A DNA stretch of 64,000 nt from a virus (lineage: Duplodnaviria > Heunggongvirae > Uroviricota > Caudoviricetes), in IMG/VR virus record IMGVR_UViG_2909262264_000005; one strand, written 5' to 3'. Position numbers and translations under genes: made by a program. Under the pieces are notes generated by a model. That model saw nothing but the letters and a program-made list of their open reading frames with translations, was not told the origin of the DNA and did not search any database. Positions 45,639 through 46,691 of this stretch are shown here, one piece after another (position 1 is the first letter of the stretch; every line of letters starts with the position of its first letter).

Positions 45639-46691
45639 TTATTTCCCCACCAGCTCGTTTATCTCTTTCACTGTCTGGTTAAACCGCTCTGACTCAAGCT
45701 CAACACCTAAGGCCCGACGCCCCAGCGCCATTGCTGCTTTTATTGTGGAACCGGATCCCATAAAAAAATCAGCAACCAGATCACCAGGTCGACTACTGGC
45801 ATTGATTATTTGCCTGAGCATATCCACCGGTTTCTCACACGGATGTTTACCCGGGTAGAACTGAACGGGTTTATGCATCCAGACATCGGTATAAGGCACG
45901 GAGACTGATACGGAGAAATAGCGCCGGAGAGATTTAAACTCATCCAGCAATTCAGAATATTTGCGATTCAGTGAATCATAAGATGCCACCAGCTGGTGGT
46001 GTGGTTGTTCCAGTTGTTGTTCCTGAAACTTCTCTGCCGCTATACGGGAAAACAGTGCCTGTAACTTCCGATAGTCAGCCTCATTCGGCAACTGCCACTG
46101 ACTGGCACCAAACCAGTGGGAAACCATATTTTTCTTACCTGTGGCTTCGGCAATTTGTTTTGCCGTTATACCCAGTTCGGCACGAGCATCCCTGAAATAC
46201 GATATCAGCGGTGCCATTATGTGCTGTTTGAGTTCCCTTTCTTTTGCCGCATAGCCGTCACTTTTGCCGCGATATGGCCCCTGGTAATGTTCAGCAAACA
46301 GAACGCGCTCTGTGGCAGGAAAATATGCGCGCAGACTTTCTTTATTACACCCATTCCAACGTCCGGACGGCTTCGCCCAGATGATATGGTTAAGCACGTT
46401 GAAACGTTCACGCATCATGATCTCAATATCAGATGCCAGGCGATGCCCACAGAACAGGTAAAGGCTTCCGGCAGGTTTCAACACCCGCCAGAACTGGGCC
46501 AGACAGTGGTCCAGCCACTTAAGGTAATCTTCGTCCCCTTTCCACTGATTGTCCCAACCGTTGGGTTTCACCTTGAAGTAAGGCGGATCGGTAACAATCA
46601 GGTCAATGGAATCATCAGGCAGGGACTGAATAAAATGCAGGCAATCAGCGTTGATTAAATCAACACTGTTTATTTTTACAGTATTTTTCAT
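45639..46691 (-). CDS. DNA methyltransferase (DPPY motif; N6-adenine or N4-cytosine class), late-operon orphan
   Basis: 350 aa; motif [13 protein letters not shown], motif I-like region …DFFMGSGST… near the C-terminus; no adjacent restriction gene. Confidence 0.85.

Follow-up and report, generated by a model that had tools for sequence, protein, structure and literature searches.

The reference enzyme of the M.EcoGII family is a prophage-encoded orphan DNA methyltransferase of Escherichia coli O104:H4 C227-11 (GenBank EGT69837.1), with M.EcoGI as its sister. M.EcoGII modifies adenines in DNA irrespective of sequence context, in vitro up to 99% of them, and is also active on single-stranded DNA and RNA (PMC5778455). 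Its gene stays silent in the lysogen and its expression is toxic; DNA carrying 80% N6-methyladenine (m6A) transforms 10^4-10^5-fold less well (PMC5778455, PMC12707154). All six reconstructed ancestors of the enzyme (6/6) were active, and two of them, Anc291 and SUPREM (Anc284), showed no site preference (PMC11551740). The nearest site-specific relative, M.PflMI (CCANNNNNTGG), resembles the family in overall predicted fold; its identity to M.EcoGII is 27%, and the charged linker between the domains is absent from it (PMC11551740). Here we describe a gene of this family at 45639..46691 (minus strand) of the window, by which we mean the whole analysed stretch of 64,000 nucleotides (nt) from the Caudoviricetes record IMGVR_UViG_2909262264_000005 of IMG/VR. 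The window holds sequence of two prophages, called A and B; the intact gene belongs to prophage B, and a truncated relative lies in prophage A.

We put at roughly 80% the probability that the product is an S-adenosylmethionine (SAM)-dependent, beta-class N6-adenine methyltransferase of the M.EcoGII family, with no sequence specificity, found in lambdoid phages of Enterobacterales and made late, in dependence on the antiterminator Q, in an anti-restriction role. The gene itself is already known, since it is closely related to a characterised prototype and common in prophages, and as a further copy of it the present one adds little. Its genome context is more informative, as it pictures how a toxic, non-specific methyltransferase might stay silent and then be released: the gene stands in the late operon, behind terminators and with an unusual translation start. 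Such a context is not described in the M.EcoGII papers PMC5778455 and PMC11551740, and in the literature we found nothing that connects EcoGII to lambdoid phages, late genes or holins. A structured leader RNA and a small winged-helix protein gene next to the methyltransferase gene provide testable handles on its regulation.

Family membership and sequence specificity

The open reading frame (ORF) begins with ATG and encodes 350 amino acids (aa). Its translation has the motif order of the beta class, with DPPY near the N terminus (TDPPY at residues 34-38, DPPY at 35-38), a central target-recognition domain and FxGxG near the C terminus (FFMGSGST at residues 309-316). The Pfam family PF01555 (N6_N4_Mtase) spans the whole protein (E 1.1e-42, model positions 1-220 of 221); no other Pfam family was found on it, and the Dam profile PF05869 did not match. 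The closest solved structures are all beta-class DNA amino-methyltransferases (8urk/9c3u, M.RsrI, M.MboIIA, CcrM and DpnA), and the alignments to them span both halves of the protein. [quoted passage not shown] ORF, motifs and Pfam match agree with the sequence-only reading of this DNA, which had called the gene a 350-aa methyltransferase with a DPPY motif.

Over its full length the protein is 80% identical to M.EcoGII (280/349 positions), with no domain-sized gaps. By region, the N-terminal catalytic part reaches 89%, the recognition domain (residues 160-237) 77% and the linker (residues 238-262) 68%; the charged interdomain linker that M.PflMI lacks is kept. These identities are slight underestimates, because the M.EcoGII sequence was obtained by machine reading of a PDF (Supplementary Table S1 of PMC11551740), which left a few errors such as NHHIWA for NHIIWA. 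With Anc291 the protein shares 88-89% of its residues (86% in the recognition domain) and with SUPREM 70%; both are laboratory reconstructions rather than natural genes. The raised RNA activity of SUPREM is linked to E179, whereas the protein described here has Q at that position, like the M.EcoGII clade. With M.EcoGII it shares the beta-class order, a length of about 350 aa and the standing of a prophage-encoded orphan, although over the N-terminal 150 residues M.EcoGII is closer to the truncated copy of prophage A than to the enzyme of prophage B.

The protein thus falls well within a clade whose tested members are non-specific, and the target specificity, which the sequence-only reading had called unknown, therefore becomes very probably none: judging from its homologues, the enzyme would very probably methylate adenine in any sequence context. 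It is very improbable that we are instead dealing with a sequence-specific orphan, Dam-like in role and with its target still to be determined. RefSeq and NCBI do name homologues ‘site-specific DNA-methyltransferase’, the recognition domain and that of M.EcoGII disagree at 23% of positions, and M.PflMI shows that a distant relative can be site-specific. However, the database name is automatic, and the protein is bracketed by three non-specific enzymes at 80% (M.EcoGII), 88-89% (Anc291) and 70% (SUPREM) identity, with M.PflMI only 27% identical to M.EcoGII. Nor was any domain insertion or deletion seen relative to M.EcoGII, and prophage B already carries a separate Dam-family enzyme.

That second gene lies at 54323-55009 (minus strand; PF05869) in the early nin region of prophage B, adjoining genes for PerC-like and RusA proteins. 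Phage Dam-family enzymes, whose specificity is GATC, are likewise phage-encoded orphan adenine methyltransferases that are thought to protect against restriction; they differ from the enzyme described here in having their own Pfam model and in their early position. Prophage B would therefore encode two adenine methyltransferases, an early one of the Dam family and a late one of the non-specific family.

Close relatives of the late gene are widespread. The methylases of phages cdtI and Ayreon are 99.7% identical to it in protein sequence, those of mEp460 and SfV (orf48) 99.4% and 98%, and more distant ones occur in Stx2c phages (85%), phiP27 (L24; 82%) and 1720a-02 (about 81%). All of these are annotated only as putative methylases, and no experimental test of any of them was found in the searchable literature. 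Many IMG/VR viral contigs carry copies that are 100% identical. The gene has a DNA match in 1254 of 5426 complete E. coli genomes, with 608 records at 99% identity or more, and the ORF is one base away from alleles present in hundreds of genomes. Homologues at 62-93% identity extend throughout Enterobacterales, from Escherichia to Xenorhabdus, Providencia and Morganella.

Late position and proposed anti-restriction role

The gene lies, as the sequence-only reading had placed it, between the ‘late leader gene’, a 67-aa ORF upstream, and a pinholin gene downstream. After its stop codon, a terminator-like hairpin (45608..45632, minus strand) precedes the start of the pinholin, and a terminator is annotated at the same place in Ayreon and SfV. 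The S21-type pinholin (45356..45571, minus strand; PF04971, E 3.6e-35) has 71 aa when counted from MKSMDKL, with the mechanical ORF starting at 45634, and is named essD in the E. coli ECONIH4 prophage. It is followed on the same strand by an endolysin gene of the phage lysozyme rrrD type (44859..45356; PF00959; rrrD is the RefSeq name in the ECONIH4 prophage), by the Rz spanin gene (44395..44874; PF03245) with Rz1 embedded in it (44436..44642; PF06085), and then by the terminase genes.

Upstream, the conserved module begins with a hairpin and T run resembling an intrinsic terminator (47163..47192, minus strand), which is kept in prophages A and B and in Ayreon and is annotated as a terminator in Ayreon and SfV. 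It is probably a tR'-type terminator that Q-modified polymerase reads through. In 43 of 52 species-level loci an equivalent hairpin, with a different stem sequence, is found at most 220 nt ahead of the small ORF.

The ECONIH4 prophage is syntenic with prophage B gene for gene, with Q followed by two hypothetical genes on the opposite strand, the 67-aa ORF, the methyltransferase gene, essD, rrrD, Rz and terminase. Ayreon and SfV have another Q and other cargo ahead of the same small ORF and methyltransferase gene, and in phiP27 and 1720a-02 the gene is followed by tRNAs and stx genes, so that a holin is not directly next to it. The distance from the stop of the small ORF to the methyltransferase ATG is exactly 150 nt in the phage and prophage records compared. 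In the window and in five relatives, then, the gene lies downstream of Q and behind a terminator, contiguous with and on the same strand as the lysis genes, which is the layout of a Q-dependent late operon. Searches of Pfam, PADLOC, NCBIfam and the PDB found no restriction endonuclease-like neighbour, the adjoining genes being those of the winged-helix protein and the pinholin. As there is no nuclease-like partner and the variable neighbours among phages rule out a fixed one, we agree with the sequence-only reading that the gene is an orphan.

Based on this arrangement we can propose how the gene might be used by an intact phage. The methyltransferase gene would be part of the Q-dependent late transcript, in the order Q, late promoter, terminator, winged-helix gene, leader, methyltransferase gene, and then lysis genes or stx. 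In the lysogen, the terminators, and probably also weak or regulated translation, would hold the gene off. Late in infection, Q-modified polymerase would pass the terminators and the enzyme would be produced, and it would then methylate a fraction, or many, of the adenines in replicating and packaged phage DNA. Progeny phage would thereby resist the many restriction systems of Type I, II or III against which m6A protects. The family membership, the intact motifs, the late position, the synteny and the flanking hairpins in this proposal are observed at the locus. Non-specific activity, silence in the lysogen and toxicity would carry over by analogy from experiments on close homologues, and late Q-dependent expression, the benefit against restriction and the role of the leader are what we infer. 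The gene would need tight control, because M.EcoGII is toxic and heavy m6A cuts transformation; the terminator-like hairpins on either side are consistent with silence in the lysogen.

Restriction systems stopped by m6A include most of Types I and III and many of Type II (PMC5778455). An anti-restriction role for the family was proposed by Murray et al. 2018 (PMC5778455) and also in PMC12707154, and it is the role that the sequence-only reading had suggested for lytic growth. We found no paper in the literature that tests it for the M.EcoGII family in a phage, and a 2024 paper calls the biological function of M.EcoGII unknown (PMC11551740). Several points weigh against our interpretation. DNA functions less well when heavily methylated, and phage DNA would then be open to m6A-dependent Type IV restriction, so that the benefit on balance is not obvious. 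An allele that diverges from M.EcoGII by 20% could also differ from it in its properties. Finally, the late promoter could not be placed with confidence, as a consensus scan did not exceed shuffled sequence in its number of sites.

The selected role of a non-specific enzyme could also be something other than evasion of restriction, such as RNA methylation, a shutdown of host DNA transactions late in infection, a packaging mark on the DNA or action against other defence systems. We regard this as unlikely. The activity of M.EcoGII on RNA and single-stranded DNA and the poor function of heavily methylated DNA (PMC5778455) would fit such a role, as would the statement that its function is unknown (PMC11551740); moreover, the elaborate leader and winged-helix partner suggest control of dosage over maximal methylation. 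On the other hand, the activity of M.EcoGII is 11.1 units on DNA and 0.12 units on RNA (Supplementary Table S3, PMC11551740), m6A does block most of the Type I and III and many of the Type II systems (PMC5778455), and late timing suits the modification of DNA bound for the virion.

A structured leader RNA and its winged-helix neighbour

The stretch of 150 nt that separates the small ORF from the methyltransferase gene is more conserved than the small ORF itself, and a leader of about 135 nt within it is kept across Enterobacterales. In prophage B the leader occupies 46692..46826 (minus strand) and abuts the methyltransferase ATG. We wrote down its fold from the sequences: helix P1 closes a three-way junction that holds P2, a hairpin of 12-14 bp, and P3, a helix of 6 bp, and two further hairpins, P4 and P5, come after the junction. 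The fold was evaluated on a MAFFT alignment of 58 sequences from species-level genomes, phages and the window, covering positions -135 to +6 relative to the ATG, with 3' partners slid by 1-3 columns and 500 shuffles as controls. Standard pairs fill 90.7% of the alignment cells in the helices (33-45% in the slid controls), 19 of the 35 pairs have changes on both sides (8-13 in the slid controls), and the covariation score is 0.162 (at most 0.081 in the controls); 0/500 shuffles reach the observed values. Every helix has at least one compensatory pair, and one position of P3 occurs as C-G, U-A, A-U and U-G.

From this fold we built a covariance model, which has exactly two matches in the window, both abutting methyltransferase starts: one at the leader of prophage B (46686-46826, 153.8 bits) and one in prophage A (1579..1714, minus strand, 122.4 bits). 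In genome loci and phages it has 63 strong matches, all but two of which (L113 and L143) end at the predicted start codon. Realignment with the model brings paired cells to 92.8% and compensatory pairs to 21. The invariant 20-mer of the 5' arm of P2 is present in at least 120 viral contigs, with the methyltransferase gene after it in nearly all. Searching Rfam 15 gave nothing at E <= 0.1 in 43000-52000, and only chance-level matches at E <= 10 in 46650-47320; ARAGORN found no tRNA or tmRNA in the leader.

Two other reasons for the conservation were considered and rejected. A leader peptide (MGGWWVL..., from an AUG at the start of the leader) is ruled out because single-base insertions and deletions shift the frame between species (GHKRT in one, VTSEP in another) and the ends of the ORF vary. 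A palindrome acting at the DNA level was rejected as well: many pairs alternate between G-U and Watson-Crick, which argues that the leader acts as RNA of the sense strand. 

At least three IMG/VR contigs (L182, L220 and L246) keep the P2 hairpin and have unrelated AT-rich DNA in place of the methyltransferase gene, which suggests that the gene was swapped for other cargo at a breakpoint inside the leader.

No canonical Shine-Dalgarno sequence precedes the methyltransferase gene, and a nearly invariant UGAUC stands one base before its AUG, so that initiation would be weak or regulated. Our tentative suggestion, which we hold at somewhat less than even odds, is that the leader is a previously undescribed cis-regulatory RNA that sets the amount of a toxic enzyme, perhaps together with the winged-helix protein, in the manner of com-mom of phage Mu, or by sensing SAM or S-adenosylhomocysteine. 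We found no description in the literature of a structured leader or of its association with a winged-helix gene. If the suggestion is true, the leader would be a new phage cis-regulatory RNA acting on an enzyme that is widely used in chromatin and RNA mapping; M.EcoGII is a commercial reagent.

The winged-helix gene itself is the 67-aa ORF at 46842..47045 (minus strand; phrog_331), with a 65-aa counterpart in prophage A (1729..1926, minus strand; phrog_331, with a weak match to TrmB). AlphaFold predicts with confidence a minimal winged helix (pLDDT 87) that resembles TrmBL2, Z-alpha, IclR-type domains and the RNA-binding domain of SelB at the level of fold only (best E 3.7e-3), and some copies are named as TrmB family by NCBI. 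The gene lies upstream of the methyltransferase gene in 52-54 of 80 species-level loci, at a fixed spacing of about 150 nt, or about 100 nt in Xenorhabdus and Photorhabdus. About 20 loci have the leader and no winged-helix gene, and Xenorhabdus and Photorhabdus have the winged-helix gene without a full leader; the two are therefore linked but separable.

In phage Mu, the toxic late DNA-modification gene mom is preceded by com, which encodes a nucleic-acid-binding protein of about 60 aa, and by a structured mRNA segment that controls its translation. The locus described here has the same arrangement of a small winged-helix gene, a structured mRNA between the genes and a toxic modification gene, and by analogy the winged-helix protein may be a Com-like partner of the leader. 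The likeness has limits: Mom is not a methyltransferase, and Com is a zinc-finger protein, unlike the small protein here, which is a winged helix without a zinc-finger pattern. In Mu, moreover, the toxic gene is silent in lysogens, and so is M.EcoGII (PMC12707154).

IS insertions, cargo and Chi sites in this genome

The late system of prophage B has lost its intact cognate Q. The Q gene starts at 51769 (minus strand) and reads normally for 68 codons (5' fragment, 51564..51769), is split at codon 68/69 by a copy of the insertion sequence ISSso4 of the IS21 family (copy 2, 48925..51563, minus strand; 2639 bp, with a 6-bp TATGAG target duplication and with Pfam matches for IstB and the transposase), and resumes in a 3' fragment (48784..48924) with its stop at 48784; the intact Q of E. 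coli ECONIH4 has 113 aa. The normal route to late expression is therefore broken here. The Q of prophage A is intact, and since it is only 46% identical to that of prophage B, cross-activation by it is uncertain. The sequence-only reading had stated that the methyltransferase would be made during lytic growth, which is probably right for the phage family and, with this Q split, probably wrong for this strain.

The methyltransferase gene of prophage A has fared no better. It extends from 1578 to 1130 (minus strand), where after 149 codons it is cut off by ISSso4 copy 1 (1..1129, ending at 1129), close to the 150 or so codons that the sequence-only reading had counted. That reading had also called this copy near-identical to the gene of prophage B. 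We find 85% DNA identity over a 300-nt repeat and 133 of 150 residues (89%) in protein, so it is a different allele; the two copies are two alleles of one family, on the evidence of their sequences, from two different prophages. The ISSso4 copies are identical, lie in inverted orientation 47.8 kb apart and could mediate an inversion. Neither of their junctions was found in the 5426 complete E. coli genomes, so the insertions are strain-specific, and probably recent; the name of the element hints that the strain may be a Shigella.

With one copy truncated and the Q ahead of the other split, the system is probably disabled in this genome, and both methyltransferase copies are probably out of action owing to ISSso4. 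We accordingly lean, by a little over even odds, towards the gene of prophage B being an unexpressed relic of a decaying prophage, whose ORF would still be whole only because Q was interrupted recently. The broken Q, the IS-truncated allele in prophage A, the absence of the IS junctions from all 5426 genomes and the single base that separates the ORF from alleles in hundreds of genomes all favour this, whereas read-through, or trans-activation by the Q of prophage A, may allow some expression. The relic explanation bears on expression in this strain alone and does not conflict with late, Q-dependent anti-restriction as the best explanation for the family.

Between Q and the late module, prophage B also carries an AT-rich two-gene cassette on the opposite strand, with about 30% GC against about 49% in its flanks. 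Its genes encode a protein of 308 aa (47310-48236, plus strand), known from PHROGs only, as an unnamed family (phrog_2802), and one of 182 aa (48223-48771, plus strand) that appears hydrophobic by eye; neither has a match in Pfam, PADLOC, NCBIfam or the PDB. The same slot holds a Gram-negative porin gene in prophage A (2378-3475, plus strand; PF00267, E 2.9e-154) and other cargo elsewhere. Because the slot carries varied cargo among phages, the AT-rich cassette is a candidate moron or defence cassette.

Finally, the window contains 29 Chi octamers (GCTGGTGG), where shuffles give an expectation of 2.2. Most of them (22/29) are on the minus, late-sense strand, and the stretch from 12.2 to 42.4 kb has none. 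Five fall within 45647..47133 on the minus strand, including one in the invariant 5' arm of leader helix P2. In Chi-rich lambdoid phages, Chi sites cluster near the right end in active orientation (PMC12315714, PMC3784561); the cluster in the window matches this published class and is in that sense already known.

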